Positions 1-56,780 of a DNA stretch of 64,000 nucleotides are shown here, piece by piece; the stretch's first letter is position 1, and each line of letters begins with the position of its first letter. The position numbers and the translations under genes are program-made. The stretch covers positions 8,992-72,991 of the forward strand of contig JAZUKE010000085.1 of NCBI GenBank assembly GCA_045643125.1, read 5' to 3'. The notes beneath the pieces were generated by a model, which worked only from the letters and a program-made list of their open reading frames with translations, made no database searches and was not told the origin of the DNA. The DNA is from Eubacteriales bacterium (GTDB lineage Bacteria; Bacillota; Clostridia; Oscillospirales; CAG-382).

Positions 1-219
1 GAAGTGCAGAAGCGTGAAGCCCCGACGGTGAACGAAATGGATCTCGACTTCACCCTGCACATCCGTCTGCTTTCCGCCGCATACCCCGGGCTTTATTACG
101 AAGTGGTCTTCTGGCGCGACACCAACGGTATGAACTATCTTTACGATATGGAACACGGAAATTCCTATTTCTGTCCGGAGCCGCTCACATACTATTTCTG
201 GGGAGGGCTTACCGAGTGA
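1..219 (+). CDS. 3' end of an unidentified gene entering from the left edge
   Basis: The frame is open from base 1 to TGA at 217-219. The stop overlaps the GTG start of the next gene (GTGA). I recognise no motif. Confidence 0.4.
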   Translation, partial: EVQKREAPTVNEMDLDFTLHIRLLSAAYPGLYYEVVFWRDTNGMNYLYDMEHGNSYFCPEPLTYYFWGGLTE

Positions 220-647
220 CGGTACGCAGAATAAAAGACGACGAAACACTTTCGGCGTCAAAACTCGAAAAAGAATGTCTTTTCTGTCCGTGGAGCAAAA
301 GCGAGATAGATTCATTCATAAAAAACGAACACTCCGTCTATCTTGTCGCCGAAAAGGACGGCGTGATAGCGGGAATATGCAGCGCGACGGTCGGTGCGGG
401 CGAATGCAGCATCGACAATATCGCCGTCGGCAAGGAATACAGACGAAGCGGCATCGCGTCCGCGCTTATCGAATCCCTTTTTGATTTTTCAAGGCGGAAC
501 GGATGCGATGAAGCGTACCTCGAAGTCGCCGAAGACAACGAAAACGCAATAGCTTTATATAAAAAATACGGATTTTTCACGGTAGGCAGGCGACCGCACT
601 TTTACGGCAATACCGACGCCCTGCTTATGAAATCGGAGGAAATATGA
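216..647 (+). CDS. rimI: Ribosomal-protein-alanine N-acetyltransferase (RimI-type GNAT)
   Basis: 143-aa GNAT core (IAVGKEYRRSGIASALI ... AIALYKKYGF). The stop overlaps the tsaD start, which is the classic rimI-tsaD pairing. Confidence 0.8.
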   Translation: MTVRRIKDDETLSASKLEKECLFCPWSKSEIDSFIKNEHSVYLVAEKDGVIAGICSATVGAGECSIDNIAVGKEYRRSGIASALIESLFDFSRRNGCDEAYLEVAEDNENAIALYKKYGFFTVGRRPHFYGNTDALLMKSEEI

Positions 648-1654
648 TAATACTCGGAATAGAATCAAGCTGCGACGAGACCGCGGCTTCAATAGTAAAA
701 GACGGCAGAGAGCTTGTTTCAAGTGTCGTCGCCACGCAGATCGCCGTCCACGCGCTTTACGGCGGTGTCGTCCCGGAGATCGCGTCGAGAGCGCATTGCG
801 AAGCGATAACCGGTGTGGTAAACGAAGCGCTCGCCAAAGCGAATATGACGCTCGGCGACGTCGATGCGATAGCCGTCACCTACGCTCCCGGACTTATCGG
901 AGCGCTGCTCACGGGGCTTTCGTTTGCAAAAGGACTTGCCTATTCTTCGGGCAAGCCGCTCATTCCCGTTCATCACATACGCGGACACGTTGCCGCGAAT
1001 TATCTCGTACATCCCGATCTTGAGCCGCCGTTCTACTGCCTTGTCGTTTCCGGCGGACACACATCGCTTATGAAAGCGGAATCGTACACCGACTACCGCC
1101 TTATCGGTCACGCACGCGACGACGCCGCAGGCGAAGCGTTCGACAAAGCCGCCCGTATGCTCGGGCTTCCCTATCCCGGAGGCGCGGCAATGGACAAACT
1201 GGCATCTATCGGCAACCCCGACGCGATAAAATTCACTCCCGCTACCGTACACGATCACGAATACGACTTCTCTTTTTCGGGGCTGAAAACGGCTGTAATA
1301 AACTACGTTCACACGAACGAAGCGCGCGGCATCACGCTTGACGACACGCAGAAAGCCGACCTTGCCGCGTCGTTCACAAAAACTCTCGTAAACACGATCT
1401 CGTCCCGGCTTGAAAAGCTCATCACGACCGGCGAAAAGCTCCCCGTCGTCCTTGCAGGCGGCGTGGCGGCAAACTCGCATCTCCGCAAAGCGGTTGTCGA
1501 TCTTTGCGAAAAACACGGCGTAAAATCGTACATTCCTCCGCTTTCCCTTTGCGGCGACAACGCCGCGATGATAGCGTCGCAGGGATATTACGAATACCTT
1601 TCCGGCTCTGTCGCGCCGCTTGACCTGAACGCTTACGCCACCAAAGAAGTATAA
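644..1654 (+). CDS. tsaD: tRNA N6-adenosine threonylcarbamoyltransferase TsaD (Gcp/Kae1 family)
   Basis: 336 aa. N-terminus MIILGIESSCDETAASIV, metal site VHHIRGH, and GGVAANS near the C-terminus. Confidence 0.95.
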   Translation: MIILGIESSCDETAASIVKDGRELVSSVVATQIAVHALYGGVVPEIASRAHCEAITGVVNEALAKANMTLGDVDAIAVTYAPGLIGALLTGLSFAKGLAYSSGKPLIPVHHIRGHVAANYLVHPDLEPPFYCLVVSGGHTSLMKAESYTDYRLIGHARDDAAGEAFDKAARMLGLPYPGGAAMDKLASIGNPDAIKFTPATVHDHEYDFSFSGLKTAVINYVHTNEARGITLDDTQKADLAASFTKTLVNTISSRLEKLITTGEKLPVVLAGGVAANSHLRKAVVDLCEKHGVKSYIPPLSLCGDNAAMIASQGYYEYLSGSVAPLDLNAYATKEV

Positions 1655-1664
1655 AAAAATAAAA

Positions 1665-1688
1665 TTTGAGGCGGATCGCCGCCTCAAA
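1665..1688 (+). terminator. Stem-loop after tsaD (weak or bidirectional terminator candidate)
   Basis: TTTGAGGCGG-atcg-CCGCCTCAAA, a 10-bp stem. The A-tract lies upstream rather than a T-tract downstream, so function on the + strand is uncertain. Confidence 0.35.
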
Positions 1689-1718
1689 ATACGATGATTC
1701 TTATATAGCCGTCCGCAC

Positions 1719-1875
1719 AGTGGACAACTCACGGGAGTTTTACACAATTTACATAATCTGCCCCTCTGCTATGTGGATAACCGTGTGGATTTGTGGAAAA
1801 CCGAGTCGAATTTTGCCGAAAAGCCTTGAAATCACGTCATCGGGGTGTGGATAACTATGTGGAAAGTGTGGATAA
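1719..1875 (+). promoter_or_regulatory. DnaA-box cluster (3 perfect plus 4 degenerate boxes, all in the same orientation)
   Basis: TGTGGATAA (reverse complement of TTATCCACA) is perfect at 1772-1780, 1846-1854 and 1867-1875. There is a 1-mismatch box at 1792-1800. There are 2-mismatch boxes at 1719-1727, 1784-1792 and 1858-1866. Confidence 0.65.
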
Positions 1876-1929
1876 AATAATTTCGATAATGCGGATTATC
1901 GGTGCGATTATGTAAACCGGAGGGTAAGA

Positions 1930-2192
1930 GTTTTCAGTTTTCAGTCTTCAGTTTTCAGTAGGGGACGGCGTCCTCGACGTCCCGATTACTAATTCACGAA
2001 ACAAATTTCAAATTATCGAAATTATTTCACGCTTTCGCGTGAAATAATCACCTCAATGTGCGAAGCACATATCATATCGCGCAAGCGATATATCATACGC
2101 CTCAAGGCGTATATCATATTGCCATAAGGCAATATATCATTTCGCGTAAGCGATAAGGGCGTATATCATATTGCCATAAGGCAATATATCAT
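1930..2192. repeat. Composite intergenic repeat: (GTTTTCA)x4 array plus a train of short hairpins separated by ATATCAT
   Basis: The heptamer array is at 1930-1957. It is followed by the hairpins TTATTTCACGC/GCGTGAAATAA, TGTGC-gaa-GCACA, ATATCGC-gcaa-GCGATAT, ATACGCC-tcaa-GGCGTAT and ATATTGCC-ataa-GGCAATAT (the last occurs twice). The same architecture recurs at 56550-56780 and partly at 4876-4979. Confidence 0.8.
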
Positions 2193-2194
2193 TT

Positions 2195-2881
2195 TTAAAT
2201 CTCATCGCCCGCAATGAATCTGATCGCCCTTTCTACCGAGTCTTTCGAGTTTCCCCAAGGGACGTCGTGATAGTTATAGTCGAACTTTTTGCAGAACAGA
2301 CTGATATCGTCGTAAAGCGAATTTATATACTCTGTCACGATACCTTCGGCTGCCTTGCAAAGCTCGGGATACCAGCGCTTTGAATTGACCTTTTTGGAAA
2401 ACAGAAGCAGTTTTTTATAGTGCGGCAGGCAGAAATATTTTTGCGACGCGAACTTGTTCCGGAACTCGTTTTCTTCTTCAAAAAGACCGCAGGCGGTCTC
2501 GAACATTTTGTCGTAATGACCTTCGATGCGTCCGCAGACGTAGCAGTCGTGTTCGAGCTTTTCTATCCGTTTTACCGGCTTCGCCGCGGGATCGCCCGAA
2601 AGAAAGCCGCCCGGCTTTATATCCTTGCGAAGCTCGTCAAGGTGCGTCTGTATCGTCAGCGCAAGCGGAAGCCGCGTTTTGGACTCGAACATCATATCAA
2701 AGTGCCTGCGGCAGAATCCAAGCTCGTTGGTCTTTATCCTTACGTCCGGCTCCATCATCGAAGCGCCGGTGATAAGGTCTATCTCGTTTTTTTCGAGCTG
2801 TTTATAAAGCAGGCAGAACGGACATTCGTCATTCTGCTCGAACGCCTGATTCACGGGAATGGTATATATCCTTTCGTGCAT
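2195..2881 (-). CDS. Cys-motif protein of unknown function (possibly DUF6062-like)
   Basis: 228 aa with CPFC, CYVCG and further Cys/His motifs. Clean ORF with coding-like composition. The family assignment is from memory only. Confidence 0.6.
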   Translation of the reverse strand: MHERIYTIPVNQAFEQNDECPFCLLYKQLEKNEIDLITGASMMEPDVRIKTNELGFCRRHFDMMFESKTRLPLALTIQTHLDELRKDIKPGGFLSGDPAAKPVKRIEKLEHDCYVCGRIEGHYDKMFETACGLFEEENEFRNKFASQKYFCLPHYKKLLLFSKKVNSKRWYPELCKAAEGIVTEYINSLYDDISLFCKKFDYNYHDVPWGNSKDSVERAIRFIAGDEI

Positions 2882-2928
2882 TTTTCTTCACCTCGGTGAC
2901 ATTATAACACAAACAAGGTAAAATTACA

Positions 2929-3795
2929 ATGGTATTTTTTGAAGGCAGCAACACATACATAGAAAAAGACGGTCTTTTTGACATAACGAAGACCTTTGAC
3001 TGCGGTCAGTGCTTCCGCTTTGAAAACGAAAACGGCGTCATCACCGGCATCGCCCACGGCAGAAAGCTCTGCGTGAGGGAGGACGAAAAGTACGTCATCC
3101 TCGAAAACGTGAGTGAAGACGAATTTGATTCCGTGTGGAAGACCTATTTTGACCTCGACCGCGACTACGGCGGCATCAACTCGTTTCTGAGCCGCGACAG
3201 CGAAGTGAAAGACTGTCTGAACTACGCAAAAGGCATACGCATACTCCGTCAGGACAAATGGGAAACGCTCTGCTCGTTCATCATATCGCAGAACAACAAC
3301 ATCCCGAGGATAAAAAAGATAGTGTCGTCTCTCTGCACCAACTTCGGCGCTCCGACCGACGGCGGCTTCGCCTTCCCCGACGCAAAGACGGTGCTTGACG
3401 CCGGCGTTGACGGTCTTGCCGTGATACGCAGCGGTTTTCGGGCAAAGTACATCATCGACGCCGCCGAAAAGGTCGTGTCGGGGGACGTTGACCTCGAAAA
3501 GCTCGCGGCTTTGTCCTACGACGAAGCAAAAGAGATACTTATGACGATAAAAGGCGTCGGAAACAAGGTCGCCGACTGCGTGCTTCTGTTCGGCTACGGA
3601 TTTTTCGATGCGTTCCCCAAAGACGTATGGATAAAGCGCGTGATACAGAAATATTACGGCGACGGCTTCGACGAATCGGTCTTCAAGCCCTACGGCGGCA
3701 TCGCGCAGCAGTATCTGTTTTACCGCGAAAGATGGATAGAAAAAGACTCCGCACCTTTCGGCACGGAGTCCCCGACAGTGAATAACCGTCCTTAA
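2929..3795 (+). CDS. ogg: 8-oxoguanine DNA glycosylase / HhH-GPD family N-glycosylase-DNA lyase
   Basis: 288 aa. OGG-type N-terminal domain (FDCGQCFRF) and an HhH-GPD motif (LMTIKGVGNKVADCVLLFG...FPKDVWIKR). Confidence 0.85.
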   Translation: MVFFEGSNTYIEKDGLFDITKTFDCGQCFRFENENGVITGIAHGRKLCVREDEKYVILENVSEDEFDSVWKTYFDLDRDYGGINSFLSRDSEVKDCLNYAKGIRILRQDKWETLCSFIISQNNNIPRIKKIVSSLCTNFGAPTDGGFAFPDAKTVLDAGVDGLAVIRSGFRAKYIIDAAEKVVSGDVDLEKLAALSYDEAKEILMTIKGVGNKVADCVLLFGYGFFDAFPKDVWIKRVIQKYYGDGFDESVFKPYGGIAQQYLFYRERWIEKDSAPFGTESPTVNNRP

Positions 3796-3884
3796 CCGCC
3801 GCAGCAGCAAAGGATGATTATTGCGATAAGAATGATTACCCAGCAGTTATTCTGGCCTCCGAAGAACGAATCGAAGCATCCCAT
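3792..3884 (-). CDS. 30-aa Cys-rich hydrophobic micropeptide (below the ORF-track threshold)
   Basis: Hand translation gives MGCFDSFFGGQNNCWVIILIAIIILCCCGG*. A GGAGGGA Shine-Dalgarno sits 6 nt upstream of the ATG (3891-3897 on the minus strand). The sequence contains one predicted TM helix. Confidence 0.5.
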   Translation of the reverse strand: MGCFDSFFGGQNNCWVIILIAIIILCCCGG

Positions 3885-3990
3885 GTAAATTCCCTCCTTC
3901 TGTCCGGAGTATCAACCGGTTCTCTACATACTATGCAGAAACGTTATTCTGCGTCAAAACAAAAAGAAAACCAAAAAAGGAGAAAATCCA

Positions 3991-4572
3991 ATAAAACGCA
4001 TTTTAATTCTGCTGCTTGCCCTTTCCCTTGTCTTCTCGTGCGTGGCGTGCGATATAGGCAGCTTCATAGAAGTCGTCACGTCGGAGCCGGAGGACGTATC
4101 GTTTGAGCCGGTCTCGATCATAACCTATGTATCGCTTCCCGAAGAATCAAGCATTTACGAGGAATCAAGTCTTCCCGAAGAATCGGAGGAAGAGCCGGGG
4201 ATCACCGTTGACAAAGACGGAGCTTATTACGATCTTGAACACGTCGTCGCGTATCTTGCGACATACAAAAAACTGCCGTCGAACTACATCACCAAAGCCG
4301 AAGCACAGAAGCTCGGATGGTCGGGCGGCACAGTGGAAAGATACAAAAACGGTGCCGCGATCGGCGGAGACTATTACGGCAACTACGAAAAACGGCTTCC
4401 CACAACGAAAGGCATCAAATACACTGAATGTGACCTCGATACGAACGGCAGCAAGCCGAGAGGCGAAAAGCGGCTCATCTACTCGACGGATTGGCATTTT
4501 TATTACACCGAGGATCATTACGAAACGTTCCGTGAAGTCGTATACGAGAACGGAAAGGTGGTATTCAAATGA
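3991..4572 (+). CDS. Secreted guanyl-specific ribonuclease, barnase family
   Basis: The C-terminal 110 aa align by eye with barnase (ITKAEAQKLGWSGG..., GGDYYGNYEKRLP, RLIYSTDWHFYYTEDHYETF). The in-frame upstream sequence encodes a signal peptide (KRILILLLALSLVFSCVAC) preceded by AAGGAGA. The start codon is uncertain: ATA at 3991, whereas the track calls GTG at 4042. Confidence 0.85.
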   Translation: MKRILILLLALSLVFSCVACDIGSFIEVVTSEPEDVSFEPVSIITYVSLPEESSIYEESSLPEESEEEPGITVDKDGAYYDLEHVVAYLATYKKLPSNYITKAEAQKLGWSGGTVERYKNGAAIGGDYYGNYEKRLPTTKGIKYTECDLDTNGSKPRGEKRLIYSTDWHFYYTEDHYETFREVVYENGKVVFK

Positions 4573-4835
4573 AAAATATACTGCTCGATTTTTCGCTCGT
4601 TTTCAATAAAGCCTCCGCCCACTCCTACGTCGCGTCCAAGCTCTCGTTTCCCCGTTGGTACGGCAGGAATTTCGACGCGCTGAACGACTGTCTCTGGGAG
4701 ATCGGCGAATGTACGCTTGTGCTGCGAAACGTCGAAAAGCTGAACGAGATCGACAAAACTTTCCTTGAAGTTTTCAAGCGCAACGAAAAAGAAAATAAAA
4801 ATCTGTCCCTTGTCATACTCGACGAAGGACAGTGA
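4569..4835 (+). CDS. Barstar (barnase inhibitor)
   Basis: 88 aa. WYGRNFDALNDCLWE matches the barstar YYGENLDALWDCLTG helix. The start overlaps the RNase stop (ATGA). Confidence 0.9.
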   Translation: MKNILLDFSLVFNKASAHSYVASKLSFPRWYGRNFDALNDCLWEIGECTLVLRNVEKLNEIDKTFLEVFKRNEKENKNLSLVILDEGQ

Positions 4836-4873
4836 AAAAAGGATTTCCGTGATGTGAGCGGAAATCCTTTTTT
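4835..4873 (+). terminator. Rho-independent (bidirectional) terminator after barstar
   Basis: AAAAAAGGATTTCCG-(9 nt)-CGGAAATCCTTTTTT. Confidence 0.8.
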
Positions 4874-4875
4874 GA

Positions 4876-4979
4876 GTTTTCGGTTTTCAGTTTTCAGTTT
4901 TCAGTTTTCACCTGCAAATTATTTCACGGCTTGCCGTGAAAATAATTACCTTAATTTGTCATTTGCAATTTGTCATTTG
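4876..4979. repeat. Truncated copy of the heptamer/hairpin repeat family
   Basis: GTTTTCG plus (GTTTTCA)x4 at 4876-4910, then the hairpin ATTATTTCACGG-cttg-CCGTGAAAATAAT, then the CCTTAATTTGTC ATTTGCA ATTTGTC ATTTGTC heptamers. Confidence 0.75.
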
Positions 4980-5675
4980 TCATTCGTTTGTCCGCTTTTT
5001 CTTTGCAAATATTATTCTCACCGAGTCGTAAAGGGGTTCGTGCGTTATCTTATCCGCGTCGAAGCGCATCGTGCGGAACGCAAACTGCATAACCGGCCCC
5101 GCGCCGAACGCGCAGACGAGCGTGCCGACACCGACTTTGCCGCCGAGCAGCCATCCGATGAACGTGGCAAGGCTGAGCAGTCCTATGCTGATAACGCCTA
5201 TGGGAATCTTTGAAAGTCTCTTTTTAAGCCCGACAAGCAGCGTGTCACGCGGGCCGCAGCCGAGAGCGGCATTCATATAGAAATACTGCGTGTAGCCGAG
5301 TATGAACAACCCTACGACGAGCATAACGATACTTCCCGCCATATTCTTCGGCACCGGGACGACGTTCAGCCACTCGAAGAAATCCACCGCTTTGCCGACG
5401 GTCACCGCGTCGATGAACATAGCGATGCCGATGGGCTCGCGCATAATCACGTCGATAAGAACTATCAGCGCCGAAACGGCTATCGAAGCGTTGCCGTAGA
5501 CGATGCCGAGCGTCTTGGAAAGACCGAGGTTGAATACGTCCCACGGAGCGGCGCCGACCGACGCGTGTATCGTGAGGTAAACGCCGAAGCCGTTGACGAA
5601 AAGCGAAATGAACGCTATGCACATATTCGTGAAGATACCCCGACGGGTATCGTTTTTTATTGCTTTTATTCTCAT
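4980..5675 (-). CDS. YczE/YitT-like integral membrane protein
   Basis: About 231 aa and polytopic (GFGVYLTIHASVGAAPWDVFNLGLS, GCGPRDTLLVGL). I take the start at the second Met (MRIKAIK). Confidence 0.7.
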   Translation of the reverse strand: MRIKAIKNDTRRGIFTNMCIAFISLFVNGFGVYLTIHASVGAAPWDVFNLGLSKTLGIVYGNASIAVSALIVLIDVIMREPIGIAMFIDAVTVGKAVDFFEWLNVVPVPKNMAGSIVMLVVGLFILGYTQYFYMNAALGCGPRDTLLVGLKKRLSKIPIGVISIGLLSLATFIGWLLGGKVGVGTLVCAFGAGPVMQFAFRTMRFDADKITHEPLYDSVRIIFAKKKRTNE

Positions 5676-5836
5676 AAACAAACCGTCCGACAATATTCTT
5701 ACAACGATTATTTGTAGCAGATGCGAACGGTTTTGTCAATAGAAAAAGAAAGGAAAAATATAATAAAAATATCTTGATTTTCTTTTTTCGGTGTGATATA
5801 ACACTCTCGAAAATCCAATATAAAGAAGGAATATTA

Positions 5837-6919
5837 ATGAGCAGAGTGCTTGTACCCGATTATTTTGAGCGGTTCGTATGCAAATGCGGCATCTGCCGTC
5901 ACCCGTGCTGCGACGGCTGGGGCATCAACGTGAGCAAAGCGGAATATTTTTCGCTCATCGGTCTTGACTGCACCGAAAAACTGCGTCACCGCATAGACGA
6001 CGCCTTTGTGGTGTCGGACTTCCCCACCGATGAATCCTACGCTTCGATACAGCCGAATTTTCTTGAACAATGTCCGATGCTCGACGAAGACGGACTTTGT
6101 ATGCTTCAAAAGGAAAAGGGTGAGCATCTGCTGCCGCTTATATGCCGCGTATATCCGCGAGGCGTGAAAAAGTACGGCGAAAATCACGAGATATGTATGT
6201 CGTGCAGCTGCGAAGAGACGGTGGAACTGCTTATGCAAAGCACGAAGCCGCTGCTCCCGCACGAAACGACGGTGGATCTGCCGTTTGATGGGCTTGAAGT
6301 CTACGGCGACGAGCCGGAAAAAGACGCTCTTCGCCACAAATGCGTGTTAATAATGTCCGAGCCGGGCGAAAGCATAACGGAACGCCTTGAAAAGATCGGG
6401 TTGCTTTGCGGCGGCAATCCGCAGGAAGAAGCGGAAAGCCGAAAGCAGTCGCTTGTTTCGGTAAAGCATTTTATCGAAATACTTTGCAGACGCAGCAAGA
6501 GCATAAGAGAATACGGTGAAAAAGTGCTGTCCTTCCTCGACTGCGGCGAAGACGAGATGATGCTCCGTTTCGACGAAGCGGAAGAGCATCTTTACAAAGT
6601 GATCCCGAAGGTCGAAGCCTACGCGGGCAGGATAATCGCCAATCATCTGATATACGAGAGTTTCCCCTACGTTGACGGCTGTGAAACGCCCGATTCGGCG
6701 TTTGCCGCGTTCTGCACGGCGGTCGCCCTGCTCAAGGTGATGTGCGTCTGCGGTATGGCGGACACCGACGACATCGACGTTTTTACGGATATCCTGTCAT
6801 TTGCCAACAGATTTATCGAACATTCCGACTATTACAGAACGTGCAGCCGCCTCTCGCACCCCGAAGGGATGAAGACGTTTGCGCTTTTTAAGCCGATACT
6901 TGAAAAGAATGACAAATGA
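5837..6919 (+). CDS. FliB-family Cys-rich protein (flagellin lysine-N-methylase-like)
   Basis: The N-terminus PDYFERFVCKCGICRHPCCDGWGINV fits the CxxxCxxxCC-GW signature. I take the start at ATG 5837 (after AAGAAGGA), not at 5774. No flagellar genes are nearby. Confidence 0.55.
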   Translation: MSRVLVPDYFERFVCKCGICRHPCCDGWGINVSKAEYFSLIGLDCTEKLRHRIDDAFVVSDFPTDESYASIQPNFLEQCPMLDEDGLCMLQKEKGEHLLPLICRVYPRGVKKYGENHEICMSCSCEETVELLMQSTKPLLPHETTVDLPFDGLEVYGDEPEKDALRHKCVLIMSEPGESITERLEKIGLLCGGNPQEEAESRKQSLVSVKHFIEILCRRSKSIREYGEKVLSFLDCGEDEMMLRFDEAEEHLYKVIPKVEAYAGRIIANHLIYESFPYVDGCETPDSAFAAFCTAVALLKVMCVCGMADTDDIDVFTDILSFANRFIEHSDYYRTCSRLSHPEGMKTFALFKPILEKNDK

Positions 6920-9133: not shown

Positions 9134-11539
9134 ATGAGTATTTCGGAAAATTACTTCAACGAAACAAGATGCGAAATGTGCAAGAAAAAATCCCGTGCGG
9201 AAGCCTCAAGCGGCAGAGCGTATGGCAAAGAAAACGGTTTTACCGTCGTTTCATTAAGATGCCCCTACGTTATCGAGGGCGTTCTTGACGAAAGAGCCAA
9301 GAACGCGGACGGCATACTTACCGACGGCGACGACATCGGCGGCTCGATCGCCGAAGACAAGATCTGGGCAGGCGTCAAAGCCGACGACGGCGCAAAGATC
9401 ACGATAAGCCTCAAAAAGAAGCTCGATTCTGTCTGCGGCTTTGAATTTTCCTGCGTCAGAAGCGACGAAAACAACATCGTCTTCCCCGAATATATCGAAG
9501 TATTTGCCGACGGAATTGACGTTGGCAGAATGTACGCGCCGAAAGACGAAAGTATTATAAACCATAATTTCGTGCTTTCTCTCGATTACTGCGTGAACGC
9601 GGCTGAAGTATCGTTTGTACTTCCCGCAAAGAAGGATGTTTTCTACCGTTTTGAAGAAGCGACCGTCATCGCCAACGAAAAAATCGCGGCAGGCGATTTT
9701 TACGGCGGATTTGAAGTTGCCGAAGTGGAAGAAGAACTTTGGGTTGATCAGTCCGAAGAACTCGAAAACCTCGCCGCCCATAAAAAACTTATGGCAAAAG
9801 CAGGCGCCGGCGGAGTCAATTCCGGAACGAACCATTCAAATATCGAGATCCTCAACGACGGCGTATCGAGCGAAAGCGTATATTGCTACGACGGAAAATG
9901 GGTGCGCTTCAACGGTGCCGCCGACAGACTCATCGTCATCGACCTCGGCAAAACGAGCGCCGTCAAGTCGTTTGAAACTCACTTCCTGTTCAGCAAGAGT
10001 ATGTGGATCAACATTCCCCACGTCATAAAATTTTCGCTTTCCGAAGACGGAAAAACGTGGTACGACGCGGCAAAATTCGAGGAGCTGAAGCACGTCGGCG
10101 ACGAGTCGATGCTTCCCGTAAAATTCGAGCTTGGAAAAGCCGTAAAAGCGCGTTACGCTTCGCTTTTCTTCACCTGCGACCAGAACTTCGTTGACGAGAT
10201 CATCGTAAACGGAACTAAGAGCATAAAGGACGCTCTGCCCGCATCGTCGCTCGGAAACGGCTACTCGCTCGACGCAGCGCAGGACGACAAAGGCTATCTC
10301 AAGCCCTCTCCTTCGCTTCTCGGCGGTGTCAACGACGTGATGCTTGTTTACCACAACACCGATTACCTTGTAAACGAAGAAATGCTGCTTCCTTACGTTG
10401 CATATCTCGACAAAGACGGAAACATAAAAGACACTATGTTCGACGGCTACCTGTTCCTGCCCGCAGTACGCGCACTCCCCGGCGGCGGCTGCCCCGACGG
10501 CGGAAAGACCTACAAGACCGACTGGGAAAGTCTGTTCGATTCCATTTTCGGTGACGGCATCTGTATGGATGCGCTCGAAAAGACCGCGGATAAGGTGGAA
10601 AAAGCACTCGGGCTCAATAATTACAAGGTAAAAGCATACGTCACCATAGTGAACGTACACCCCGAAGTAAACAATTTCGGTGAAGTTGACGGAAAGATGC
10701 TCGATTTCTCGTCGCTCGACGACTGCAAGAAAGCCGCCGAATGGTATGTGAACAAGGTACGCACCAAGTTCGATTCGATGAACTACAAGCACATCGACCT
10801 TTGCGGCTTCTATTGGTTCTCGGAACAGCTCAGCGGAAAATACGCTTCCATCGTCAGAGCGATCGCCGATCAGATCCATTCGATGGGCGAACAGTTCTTC
10901 TGGATCCCCTGGCACTGCGCTCCCGGTTACGCTTCGTGGCAGGACTACGGCTTCGACGTCTGCTGTATGCAGCCGAACTATGCGTTCAACGTCGGTATTC
11001 CCGAAAAGCGTCTGCTCGACAACGATGCTCTCGTCCGCCGTTACGGACTTTGCTACGAAATGGAATGTTGGGGCAAGCTCTTCAAGGACAGACTTTTCTT
11101 GCGCAAGTATATGAACTATATGAAGCAGGGCGTACTTTGCGGATACGCGGACGCGATAAATATGTATTACCAGGATTACGGCGATTTCAAATCCTGCTGC
11201 TATTCCAAGGATGCACCCGTGCGCCTTATGTACGACTATCAGTACAGCTATATGAAGAACGGTCTTGCTGCCAGACTTTATCCCGCAAAGCAGGATGACG
11301 TTTCGTTCGTATGCAAAAAGGACGCTCCGTTTGACGGAAGCGTGAGCAATTCTTCGGACATCCGCGTGTATAAGCTCTCGCGTTCTCCGTCGCACGGCAC
11401 CGTGACGCTCGACGAAAAGGGCGGATTTACCTATTACCCCAACAAGGGCTATACCGGCGACGACTCGTTCGCTTTCAGAGTAAACGAATACCTCTGCGAC
11501 AGCGAAGAAACAACGGTCACGCTTAAAGTCGAAGCATAG
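9134..11539 (+). CDS. Large protein of unknown function with a C-terminal Ig/cadherin-like domain (possibly DUF4855-containing)
   Basis: 801 aa with no obvious signal peptide. The C-terminus GTVTLDEKGGFTYYPNKGYTGDDSFAFRV is typical of bacterial Ig-like repeat domains. The central region is unassigned. Confidence 0.6.
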   Translation: MSISENYFNETRCEMCKKKSRAEASSGRAYGKENGFTVVSLRCPYVIEGVLDERAKNADGILTDGDDIGGSIAEDKIWAGVKADDGAKITISLKKKLDSVCGFEFSCVRSDENNIVFPEYIEVFADGIDVGRMYAPKDESIINHNFVLSLDYCVNAAEVSFVLPAKKDVFYRFEEATVIANEKIAAGDFYGGFEVAEVEEELWVDQSEELENLAAHKKLMAKAGAGGVNSGTNHSNIEILNDGVSSESVYCYDGKWVRFNGAADRLIVIDLGKTSAVKSFETHFLFSKSMWINIPHVIKFSLSEDGKTWYDAAKFEELKHVGDESMLPVKFELGKAVKARYASLFFTCDQNFVDEIIVNGTKSIKDALPASSLGNGYSLDAAQDDKGYLKPSPSLLGGVNDVMLVYHNTDYLVNEEMLLPYVAYLDKDGNIKDTMFDGYLFLPAVRALPGGGCPDGGKTYKTDWESLFDSIFGDGICMDALEKTADKVEKALGLNNYKVKAYVTIVNVHPEVNNFGEVDGKMLDFSSLDDCKKAAEWYVNKVRTKFDSMNYKHIDLCGFYWFSEQLSGKYASIVRAIADQIHSMGEQFFWIPWHCAPGYASWQDYGFDVCCMQPNYAFNVGIPEKRLLDNDALVRRYGLCYEMECWGKLFKDRLFLRKYMNYMKQGVLCGYADAINMYYQDYGDFKSCCYSKDAPVRLMYDYQYSYMKNGLAARLYPAKQDDVSFVCKKDAPFDGSVSNSSDIRVYKLSRSPSHGTVTLDEKGGFTYYPNKGYTGDDSFAFRVNEYLCDSEETTVTLKVEA

Positions 11540-11582
11540 CATCGACTTTCGGGATCGACGGCAGATCAAGAATAGATTTAAG

Positions 11583-11625
11583 GAAGGCTTTCCGCGAAAA
11601 AACGCGGAAAGCCTTCTCTTTTTTT
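11583..11625 (+). terminator. Rho-independent bidirectional terminator
   Basis: GAAGGCTTTCCGCG-aaaaaa-CGCGGAAAGCCTTC followed by TCTTTTTTT. Confidence 0.8.
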
Positions 11626-12370
11626 ATTTCTTGATTACGCTGATTTCCAGTTCTTTCTCGCAGTCGATGGTTTTTCCGTCGAGGAGAAGCTCAAAATGGA
11701 GGTGCGGCTCGTCGGCGGATTCCATTATCGCGCTTTCGCCGACCGCGCCGATGATATCGCCCGCTTTGACCGAACTGCCGACCCTGACCGTATCGGGAAG
11801 CTCGTCCATAAGGTTCTGATAAACGGATACCAAGCCGTATTCGTGCGTGACCTTGACCGTTTTGCCCATAAACGGATCGTCGGCGACCTCGCTCACCACG
11901 CCGTCGGCGTAGCATCTGACCTCGCTCCCCACGGAAGCGGAAATGTCGATACCGGAATGCGTGCGATAGTCCTTCATCGTTTTGGAATAGATGAGCGAAT
12001 TCATCCTGTAACCTTTAAGCGTTTCGCCGTCCGACGGACGGTAATACACTTCTTCGTCCTCCGTAGGTTCCTCGGTATCGGACGGGACGTTGCTTTCCTC
12101 TTTCTGCACCGGCTTTTCGTTGTCTCTCGGCTGATAGTCGATGACAGACGGCACCGATATTTCCGGTAGGCTCACGTCTATGTCAACGCTCGGGCTGCCC
12201 GTTATCGAGGTGACGGAAAGTATCATCACCGTCACGACGCATATCGCAAGAAACGCATAGACCGCTCCGGCGATCCTTACGCGGTTCTTTGCAGAGCCGA
12301 ACACCTTCTTGAAAAAGCCCTCTTTTTCTTCGTTTTCTTCGTTTCCGTTCTTTTTGCTTTCGTCATCCAT
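11624..12370 (-). CDS. Membrane-anchored M23/LytM metallopeptidase (SpoIIQ-like by position)
   Basis: An N-terminal TM helix and a LytM domain with intact HxxxD (HSGID) and HxH (HLHFE) motifs. It lies directly downstream of spoIID and the spoIIIA operon. Confidence 0.8.
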   Translation of the reverse strand: MDDESKKNGNEENEEKEGFFKKVFGSAKNRVRIAGAVYAFLAICVVTVMILSVTSITGSPSVDIDVSLPEISVPSVIDYQPRDNEKPVQKEESNVPSDTEEPTEDEEVYYRPSDGETLKGYRMNSLIYSKTMKDYRTHSGIDISASVGSEVRCYADGVVSEVADDPFMGKTVKVTHEYGLVSVYQNLMDELPDTVRVGSSVKAGDIIGAVGESAIMESADEPHLHFELLLDGKTIDCEKELEISVIKK

Positions 12371-56549: not shown

Positions 56550-56780
56550 GTTTTCAGTTTTCAGTTTTCAGTTTTCAGAAGAATGGAAAAATGACAGCTT
56601 TTTGCGGCTGTCATTTTCTTTATATTCTTTCCAATCGAAGAAATTATTTTCACGCTTCCGCGTGAAAATAATCACCTCAATGTTGCGAAGCAACATATCA
56701 TATCGCAGCGCGATATATCATACGCCGCAGGCGTATATCATATTGCCTTAAGGCAATATATCATTTCGCGTCAGCGATAA
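56550..56780. repeat. Second full copy of the heptamer/hairpin-train repeat (includes the antiporter terminator)
   Basis: (GTTTTCA)x4 at 56550-56577. Terminator AAAATGACAGC-(8 nt)-GCTGTCATTTT at 56587-56617. The same ordered hairpins as at 1990-2192 follow. Confidence 0.85.

Follow-up and report, generated by a model that had tools for sequence, protein, structure and literature searches.

The closest described counterpart of the element analyzed here is a DnaA-box cluster (DBC) of Bacillus subtilis, DBC[gcp-ydiF], on which the named literature is Ishikawa 2007, Okumura 2012, and Smith & Grossman 2015. DnaA occupies the gcp-ydiF spacer in vivo, as detected by chromatin affinity precipitation on chips (ChAP-chip) (PMC2533591). 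In vitro, the spacer is one of eight high-affinity regions and has 10 sites (PMC4447404), with a dissociation constant of 0.15 µM for ATP versus 0.33 µM for ADP and a 16-fold preference for ATP at 55 nM (PMC4447404). Here we analyze a 64,000-nucleotide (nt) stretch, referred to below as the window, of an Eubacteriales bacterium of the CAG-382 lineage (assembly GCA_045643125.1, contig JAZUKE010000085.1), in which a cluster of DnaA boxes lies directly after tsaD, the gene also called gcp. We consider it probable that this cluster is a chromosomal DBC that is the positional, and probably also the evolutionary, counterpart of DBC[gcp-ydiF] and that provides a platform on which DnaA-ATP assembles head to tail.

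Layout of the DnaA boxes downstream of tsaD

The cluster lies in the spacer directly 3' of its anchor gene tsaD (644..1654, + strand; Pfam PF00814 TsaD, E 4e-89), and its boxes are 65 to 245 nt past the tsaD stop. The perfect box TGTGGATAA is found at 1772, 1846, and 1867, always on the + strand, and these are the sole copies in the window when both strands are scanned. This count of 3 compares with a mean of 0.23 in dinucleotide shuffles, and none of 100 shuffles reaches 3. The perfect boxes belong to two triple boxes with 45 nt between them. Triple box A (1772..1800, + strand) consists of TGTGGATAA-ccg-TGTGGATT fused to TGTGGAAAA in a 9-3-8-9 layout, its exact sequence being TGTGGATAAccgTGTGGATT followed by TGTGGAAAA, and includes weaker boxes at 1784 (TGTGGATTT, 2 mismatches) and 1792 (TGTGGAAAA, 1 mismatch). 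Triple box B (1846..1875, + strand), which is the conserved core, consists of TGTGGATAA-cta-TGTGGAAAG fused to TGTGGATAA in a 9-3-9-9 layout (exact sequence TGTGGATAActaTGTGGAAAG followed by TGTGGATAA), and its middle box at 1858 (TGTGGAAAG) has 2 mismatches. Further out are a weak box, AGTGGACAA (1719..1727, + strand, 2 mismatches), a weak inverted box on the tsaD-proximal side, TTTTACACA (1738..1746, - strand), and two abutting degenerate boxes, TTTCGATAA and TGCGGATTA (1881..1898, starting at 1881 and 1890, + strand, 2 mismatches each), which prolong the array. Most of the boxes thus share one orientation, that of the tsaD strand, and some of them abut in pairs.

The A value of Ishikawa et al. 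scores groups of at least 4 closely spaced DnaA boxes, with 0.3 as the threshold for stable DnaA binding, and in their hands A > 0.3 sets the eight B. subtilis regions bound by DnaA in vivo apart from the rest of that genome. Our script for this calculation recovers the published value of 0.94 for gcp-ydiF. For positions 1772-1875 of the window the A value is 0.55, while the second-highest value in the window is 0.03. A first-pass annotation, made from the sequence alone, had named the upstream gene as tsaD (gcp), had listed the three perfect boxes along with four weaker ones (1719, 1784, 1792, and 1858, each with 1-2 mismatches) arranged as two triplets, and had expected the boxes to prove locally enriched. 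The Pfam match bears out the gene assignment, the boxes and both quoted triplets are exactly as it described them, and the enrichment, counted over the 64-kb window, holds both for box number and for A value. It had also judged that a 62-amino-acid (aa) open reading frame (ORF) covering part of the cluster (1666-1854) is most likely not a gene. We agree, and rule this ORF out based on the lack of any match in a Pfam search and on its lack of conservation in relatives, in which the spacer is ~100 nt shorter.

Recurrence of the triple box in relatives, distant tsaD loci, and phages

Seven relatives with 74-82% TsaD identity (L164-L170) were retrieved by protein search, and all of them share the gene order rimI-tsaD, cluster, DUF6062 gene, OGG-type glycosylase gene. 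The triple box is kept in 7 of 7, on the tsaD strand and at +75 to +166. L164 and L167 carry exactly the 30-mer of window positions 1846-1875 and L165 a near-identical one, with diverging flanks. Like the window, L168 and L169 have two triplets, and L164 and L167 have extra inverted boxes 7 nt past the triplet. In an alignment of these spacers (alignment A2), the triplet, the single box aligned to 1772, and two short blocks, ACATAAT and ATTATGT, are invariant, and the remaining spacer is about half conserved. We take the retention of the triple box amid diverging flanks to be a clear phylogenetic footprint.

For a wider view, we surveyed 80 tsaD loci from species-representative genomes (TsaD identity 50-69%), which represent Oscillospiraceae, other Clostridia, Negativicutes, and a few others, and a further 80 tsaD loci from metagenomes. 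Together with the window these make up 1.34 Mb, a chromosomal sample that is entirely tsaD-centered. The closest relative in the genome scan has 69% TsaD identity and that in the metagenome scan has 59%. With a cluster defined as at least 3 boxes of at most 1 mismatch each, 12 of the 15 clusters in genome loci sit 30-520 nt past the tsaD stop, and 5-6 of the 7 in metagenome loci do likewise. A search of both strands for the exact layout (box-3 nt-box-0 nt-box, with at most 5 mismatches in total) found 23 copies, every one of them on the tsaD strand and 87-289 nt past the tsaD stop. None was found elsewhere in the 1.34 Mb of tsaD neighborhoods, and none was found in 5 shuffles. The position after tsaD is common to the window and 21 other loci, and the fixed three-box layout occurs in Oscillospiraceae, in other Clostridia, and in Negativicutes. 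After tsaD, neighboring boxes on one strand show preferred spacings of 9 nt (31 cases), 12 nt (32 cases), and 21-22 nt (20 cases), and ACC is the commonest 3-nt spacer among the tsaD triplets. The cluster thus recurs with its place, strand, and layout conserved, in distant loci as well as in all seven close relatives, and the suggestion of the first-pass annotation that the site is ancient and conserved is supported.

The genes downstream of the cluster are unrelated among loci. They include genes for a 165-aa GNAT-like protein, a histidine kinase, and a formate-tetrahydrofolate ligase, as well as convergent genes. Since these genes vary and the tsaD side is constant, the cluster appears to be linked to the 3' end of tsaD. 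Five unrelated loci (L034, L038, L094, L107, and L110) have a member of one ~165-aa family, with the N-terminus MLK..I..L....L..VYEESN, on the + strand 60-240 nt past the triple box, and in these lineages this gene could be under DnaA control. At four other loci (L006, L032, L067, and L095), all of which carry the cluster, a gene for a DnaC/DnaI-like ATPase (Walker A G.GKTHLSTAIA) is found 2.5-3.8 kb past tsaD, which may be shared synteny or a functional neighborhood of replication genes.

The first-pass annotation had named the gcp-ydiF region as a precedent, which the published DnaA binding bears out. In the B. subtilis locus, fused pairs are found on the tsaD strand, TGTTAATAA/AGTGGATAA at +106 and TGTGGATAG/TGTGTATAA at +137, which span 106-145 nt past the tsaD stop. 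This locus also has a further perfect box on the tsaD strand and an inverted, tsaD-proximal TTATCCACA. A locus of the B. pumilus group has a fused TGTGGATAA/AGTGGATAA and, in addition, TGTGGGTAT-cat-TGTGGATAA. At both Bacillus loci the fused pairs are on the + strand only. An inverted box on the tsaD-proximal side is shared by the window, B. subtilis, L058, L063, L070, and L111. Place, strand, and spacing rules are therefore common to Bacilli, Clostridia, and Negativicutes, but the occurrence is patchy and B. subtilis lacks the exact triplet. We found no paper that ties tsaD to DnaA boxes outside Bacillaceae, and the reach of the element across Firmicutes classes, its fixed 30-bp layout, and its copies in phages appear to be unreported. 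The B. subtilis antisense RNA ncr394 near ydiF is 2.2 kb from the cluster and hence irrelevant to it.

The phage copies were found with a strict triplet pattern, TGTGGAWAA-N3-TGTGGANAN-TGTGNATAA (IMG/VR contigs L171-L204 and INPHARED entries H1-H30). The strict triplet is present in 34 viral contigs, of which one (L172) is a tsaD flank and the other 33, with the module away from tsaD, have the appearance of real phage DNA. In these, the module is located beside genes for a DnaC-like loader and a DnaB-like helicase (L180, L183, and L195), past a replication initiator and a loader (L192), ahead of an exonuclease V/Dda-like helicase (L171), beside a terminase (L175 and L190), and, as two tandem copies, near an integrase (L197 and L199). 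In L176 it is in frame within a head-scaffolding gene, where it reads LSTLSTDLST. No flanking gene common to the 34 viral contigs was found. Near-matches of the triplet occur in large Vibrio phages (schizoT4-like) and in Microviridae. Escherichia coli chromosomes have no triple-box-like array, and in E. coli the only occurrence is on plasmids. The presence of the triplet in phages as well argues that it is a portable, strong DnaA-binding module, and a location beside phage replication genes is as expected of a portable DnaA-recruiting site.

Proposed function and alternatives

Clostridial DnaA is expected to recognize TTWTNCACA (PMC7561715), and in the DnaA of one surveyed Oscillospiraceae locus (L048), read from its translation, 5 of the 6 residues by which E. 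coli DnaA contacts bases are retained, with Q in place of P423. By analogy with the B. subtilis experiments, DnaA would bind the window cluster cooperatively and with a preference for ATP. The two 30-bp modules, each with three boxes in the same direction, would act as closely spaced DnaA sites. Domain IV of successive protomers would sit on successive boxes, so that the AAA+ domains could touch head to tail across the 3-nt and 0-nt gaps. With their high affinity, boxes 1 and 3 would bring DnaA onto the weak box between them and onto the degenerate boxes that follow, and since these weaker boxes would fill only with ATP-DnaA, the ATP form would be favored. The resulting stable DnaA oligomer away from oriC, as suggested by the geometry of the boxes, may serve as a reservoir or a sensor of active DnaA, the copy number of which would double upon replication of the tsaD locus. 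The cluster would neither unwind DNA nor act as an origin, and in this genome it would not control a downstream gene.

Several points weigh against this interpretation. Deletion of the gcp-ydiF cluster alone leaves the oriC/terC ratio of B. subtilis unchanged (relative ratio 0.99; PMC3245932), and re-insertion of this cluster at 353 degrees, near oriC, in a strain deleted for six clusters does not rescue early initiation (1.35 versus 1.37; PMC3245932). The B. subtilis genetics therefore argue against a large titration effect of the cluster on its own. The first-pass annotation had called the window site one for "DnaA-titration or regulatory" use; this broad wording stands, with titration as a possible role. 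Experimental DnaA binding to a cluster of this kind comes from B. subtilis only, while the window cluster is known from its sequence, and DBC[gcp-ydiF] consists of fused pairs 13 nt apart and lacks the exact 9-3-9-0-9 triplet. The distribution is also patchy. Only ~13-16% of the 160 sampled loci have the element, no boxes were found in L001, the closest relative in the genome collection (69%), and none were seen in loci labeled Lachnospiraceae. This patchiness indicates that the element is dispensable in many lineages, and its absence from L001 and from the Lachnospiraceae loci suggests that it has been lost repeatedly. Finally, a conserved inverted repeat that flanks the boxes (1748-1758 and 1906-1916) exceeds what DnaA alone accounts for.

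This inverted repeat is a perfect 11-nt repeat that brackets the box arrays, with its left arm, TTTACATAATC, at 1748..1758 and its right arm, GATTATGTAAA, at 1906..1916 (both given on the + strand), ~26-30 nt past the triple box. Its ACATAAT and ATTATGT blocks are those invariant in the relatives. Versions of the right-arm motif are also found at other loci, GATTATGTAAAC in L168, GATTATGGAAAC in L029, L038, and L060, and ATTATGAAAAC in L102, and in the distant loci GATTATGGAAAC or ATTATGAAAAC has a fixed spacing of 26 nt after the triple box. The motif may be the site of a partner protein or a -10-like element. A small ORF starting at GATTATG(G/T)AAAC was ruled out, since the window has ATG TAA and the frames vary by locus. 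Together with the layout of a terminator on the minus strand, described below, the flanking inverted repeat leaves room for a partner protein or for an interplay with transcription, either of which may be involved. A bolder proposal is that the triple box is not a passive sink but a dedicated, ancient regulator of the Firmicutes DnaA cycle. It would be a functional counterpart of the E. coli loci datA or DARS (DnaA-reactivating sequence) and would capture or convert DnaA-ATP, possibly together with a partner protein at ACATAAT/ATTATGT; it would be kept beside genes for N6-threonylcarbamoyladenosine (t6A) synthesis to tie initiation to translational capacity, and phages would use copies of the 30-bp module for recruiting or sensing the DnaA of the host. 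We regard this proposal as speculative and rather doubtful.

One alternative is that the boxes form the operator of a DnaA-regulated promoter that fires rightwards, as at sda and ywlC, and controls a downstream gene or small RNA. A gene directly after the cluster on the + strand does occur at some other tsaD loci, starting 60-240 nt past the triple box in L102, L107, L034, L038, L094, L110, L045, and L123, and a conserved -10-like GATTAT(G) is present ~26-30 nt past the triple box. In L168 (1954-2234) the DUF6062-OGG pair is inverted relative to the other relatives and is co-directional with tsaD, with two triple boxes just upstream, beside a TATAAT; this cluster could regulate a DNA-repair operon. 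In the window and most of the close relatives, however, the next gene is convergent and no + strand ORF comes after the cluster, and in the window no Rfam match does either. The window gene in question, a DUF6062 gene (2195..2881, - strand; Pfam PF19538, E 1e-76), forms the right edge of the spacer and is followed by the OGG-type glycosylase gene. Furthermore, only the tsaD side stays the same from locus to locus, with unrelated genes downstream, the candidate -35/-10 spacing in the window is poor, and no Rfam family matches the cluster. Ishikawa et al. term the gcp-ydiF site "uncharacteristic for transcriptional regulation" (PMC2533591), because it is located between two 3' ends. Based on these observations, we consider promoter control to be an unlikely explanation of the window cluster.

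The surroundings of the cluster bear on a second alternative, that DnaA acts as a roadblock or insulator between convergent units and keeps transcripts of tsaD, of the DUF6062 gene, or of both from reading through. Upstream of tsaD, and overlapping its start, is a gene for a rimI-like GNAT acetyltransferase (216..647, + strand; Pfam PF00583, E 5e-23); the rimI-tsaD pair is also found in the relatives and in B. subtilis. No obvious intrinsic terminator was seen for tsaD. A G+C-rich hairpin of 10 pairs (1665..1688) lies between tsaD and the boxes, with its T-run on the minus strand and the tail TTTTATTTTT, and in the spacers of L164, L165, and L167 the T-run of the hairpin is itself a DnaA box, TTTTCCACA. 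Because the T-run is on the minus strand and is a box in these relatives, a convergent DUF6062 transcript would cross the triple box before terminating. This arrangement and the convergent setting in the window, the close relatives, and B. subtilis are what a roadblock would be expected to show. In contrast, the downstream gene is co-directional at many loci, and in B. subtilis each of the convergent genes has, as read from the sequence, a terminator-like hairpin and T-run outside the boxes. A roadblock is accordingly, in our judgment, quite unlikely.

It is very improbable that the cluster is the cargo or remnant of a mobile element or phage. The triplet does occur in the 33 viral contigs that lack an adjoining tsaD, a perfect inverted repeat does bracket the cluster, and a dispersed intergenic repeat (1929-2194, with another full copy at 56551-56780 and a further occurrence at 4870-4950) does adjoin it. 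However, the gene order around the cluster is stably retained in seven relatives without the dispersed repeat, neither position nor strand varies across classes, the window has just one copy of the cluster, and no phage or integrase genes are nearby. In the dispersed repeat, arrayed TTTTCAG heptamers precede a run of short palindromes, and the hairpins of its copies vary in loop and stem bases. The palindrome part matches the Rfam family Gut-1 (RF01706) on the minus strand, with 58.2 bits at 56690-56766, which exceeds the gathering score, and with 41.7 bits at 2045-2119, so that the "sRNA" known as Gut-1 may belong to a repeated palindromic element. In an Rfam E-value scan of positions 1-6000, the match at 2045-2119, outside the cluster, was the sole one. 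The copy after tsaD is missing in the relatives, which indicates a recent insertion. The cluster is not a part of this repeat: the copy at 56.5 kb (copy B) has no boxes, and the relatives have boxes without the repeat.

The first-pass annotation had also stated that there is no dnaA nearby and had allowed that the site might simply be oriC; in the data examined, the first statement is correct and the site is not oriC. No DnaA Walker-A or domain-IV signature was found in the 64-kb window, which reaches only 1.7 kb upstream of the site, and dnaA is in the flanks of only 1 of the 160 tsaD loci. This locus, L048 (positions 9216-11943), is from an Oscillospiraceae metagenome-assembled genome in which tsaD is 2.2 kb upstream of dnaA-dnaN, and it has an origin-type cluster in the dnaA-dnaN spacer and no cluster directly after tsaD. 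An unwinding module calls for at least 3 DnaA-trios (3'-GAT-5') no more than 16 nt from the boxes and for an AT-rich element after them; the window boxes have beside them at most 2-3 NAN triplets, none of which is TAG or TAA, as compared with 9 for the B. subtilis oriC control. No 30-nt stretch at the site has more than 83% AT, a value under the 99.9th percentile of the window, and the GC skew has no switch near 1.7 kb, with the site lying at the window edge. Despite the dense boxes, the fused 8+9 pair of the same form as B. subtilis oriC boxes 7/6, and the proximity of tsaD to dnaA-dnaN in L048, an oriC or origin-like unwinding module is ruled out by the lack of dnaA, trios, and an AT-rich element, and we give it next to no credence.

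DBC[gcp-ydiF] has been among the strongest DnaA sites of B. subtilis since 2007, yet it lies between two gene ends and is silent on deletion. That the same place, strand, and precise layout are found in Clostridia and Negativicutes suggests selection over very long times and a function that has been overlooked. The minimal 30-bp module and its natural variants offer a test bed for the role of box spacing in cooperative, ATP-dependent DnaA assembly, and the triplet can serve as a marker for non-origin DnaA sites in uncultured Firmicutes. The copies in phage genomes suggest that phages make use of host DnaA.

Comparison with known DnaA-binding systems

The basal unwinding system of oriC, with boxes 6/7 (Richardson 2016; Pelliciari 2021), resembles the window cluster in having tandem boxes in the same direction with 0-3 nt gaps. 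B. subtilis oriC boxes 7/6, TGTGGATT fused to TGTGGATAA, have the same 8+9 form as TGTGGATT/TGTGGAAAA at 1784-1800 of the window, and an origin pair of R. albus, TGTTGAAAA-ACC-TGTTGAAAA, has the same spacer as tsaD triplets (both from Pelliciari Table S1). In contrast to the basal unwinding system, the window cluster has no GC spacer, no trios, no AT-rich element, and no adjacent dnaA/dnaN, and it has a third double-stranded box where oriC would have trios.

The core of E. coli DARS1 and DARS2 consists, like the window triplet, of three DnaA boxes. However, DARS boxes I and II are opposed with a 5-bp gap and bind a head-to-head dimer that is needed to release ADP (PMC6868365), whereas the boxes of the window triplet run head to tail throughout, separated by 3 and 0 nt. 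The orientation of the boxes therefore rules out a DARS-like core. E. coli datA, like the window element, groups high-affinity DnaA boxes at a chromosomal site other than the origin, and it is thought to restrain initiation (background in PMC3245932). It differs in that it acts together with IHF, promotes DnaA-ATP hydrolysis, and has more widely spaced boxes.

The DnaA-regulated promoters of B. subtilis (sda, ywlC/tsaC, yydA, and dnaA) also have box clusters outside the unwinding region, and one of them controls the t6A gene ywlC, but their clusters are upstream of the regulated gene, whereas the window cluster is at the 3' end of tsaD. Among the six DnaA clusters that B. subtilis has outside its origin, three flank genes for tRNA modification, namely, gcp (tsaD), ywlC (tsaC), and thdF (mnmE/trmE) (PMC2533591). 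Two of these three genes act in t6A synthesis, a link for which we found no paper that examines it.

Of the systems compared, DBC[gcp-ydiF] itself shares with the window cluster its location directly after tsaD and between convergent genes, boxes that are mostly on the tsaD strand, abutting pairs, and A > 0.3. The convergent neighbor is ydiF, which encodes an ABC-F protein, in B. subtilis and the DUF6062 gene in the window, and the window differs further in having two triplets and a flanking 11-nt inverted repeat. Based on the shared place, strand, and spacing rules, common descent of the window cluster with the Bacillus cluster is likely, with convergence as the alternative.

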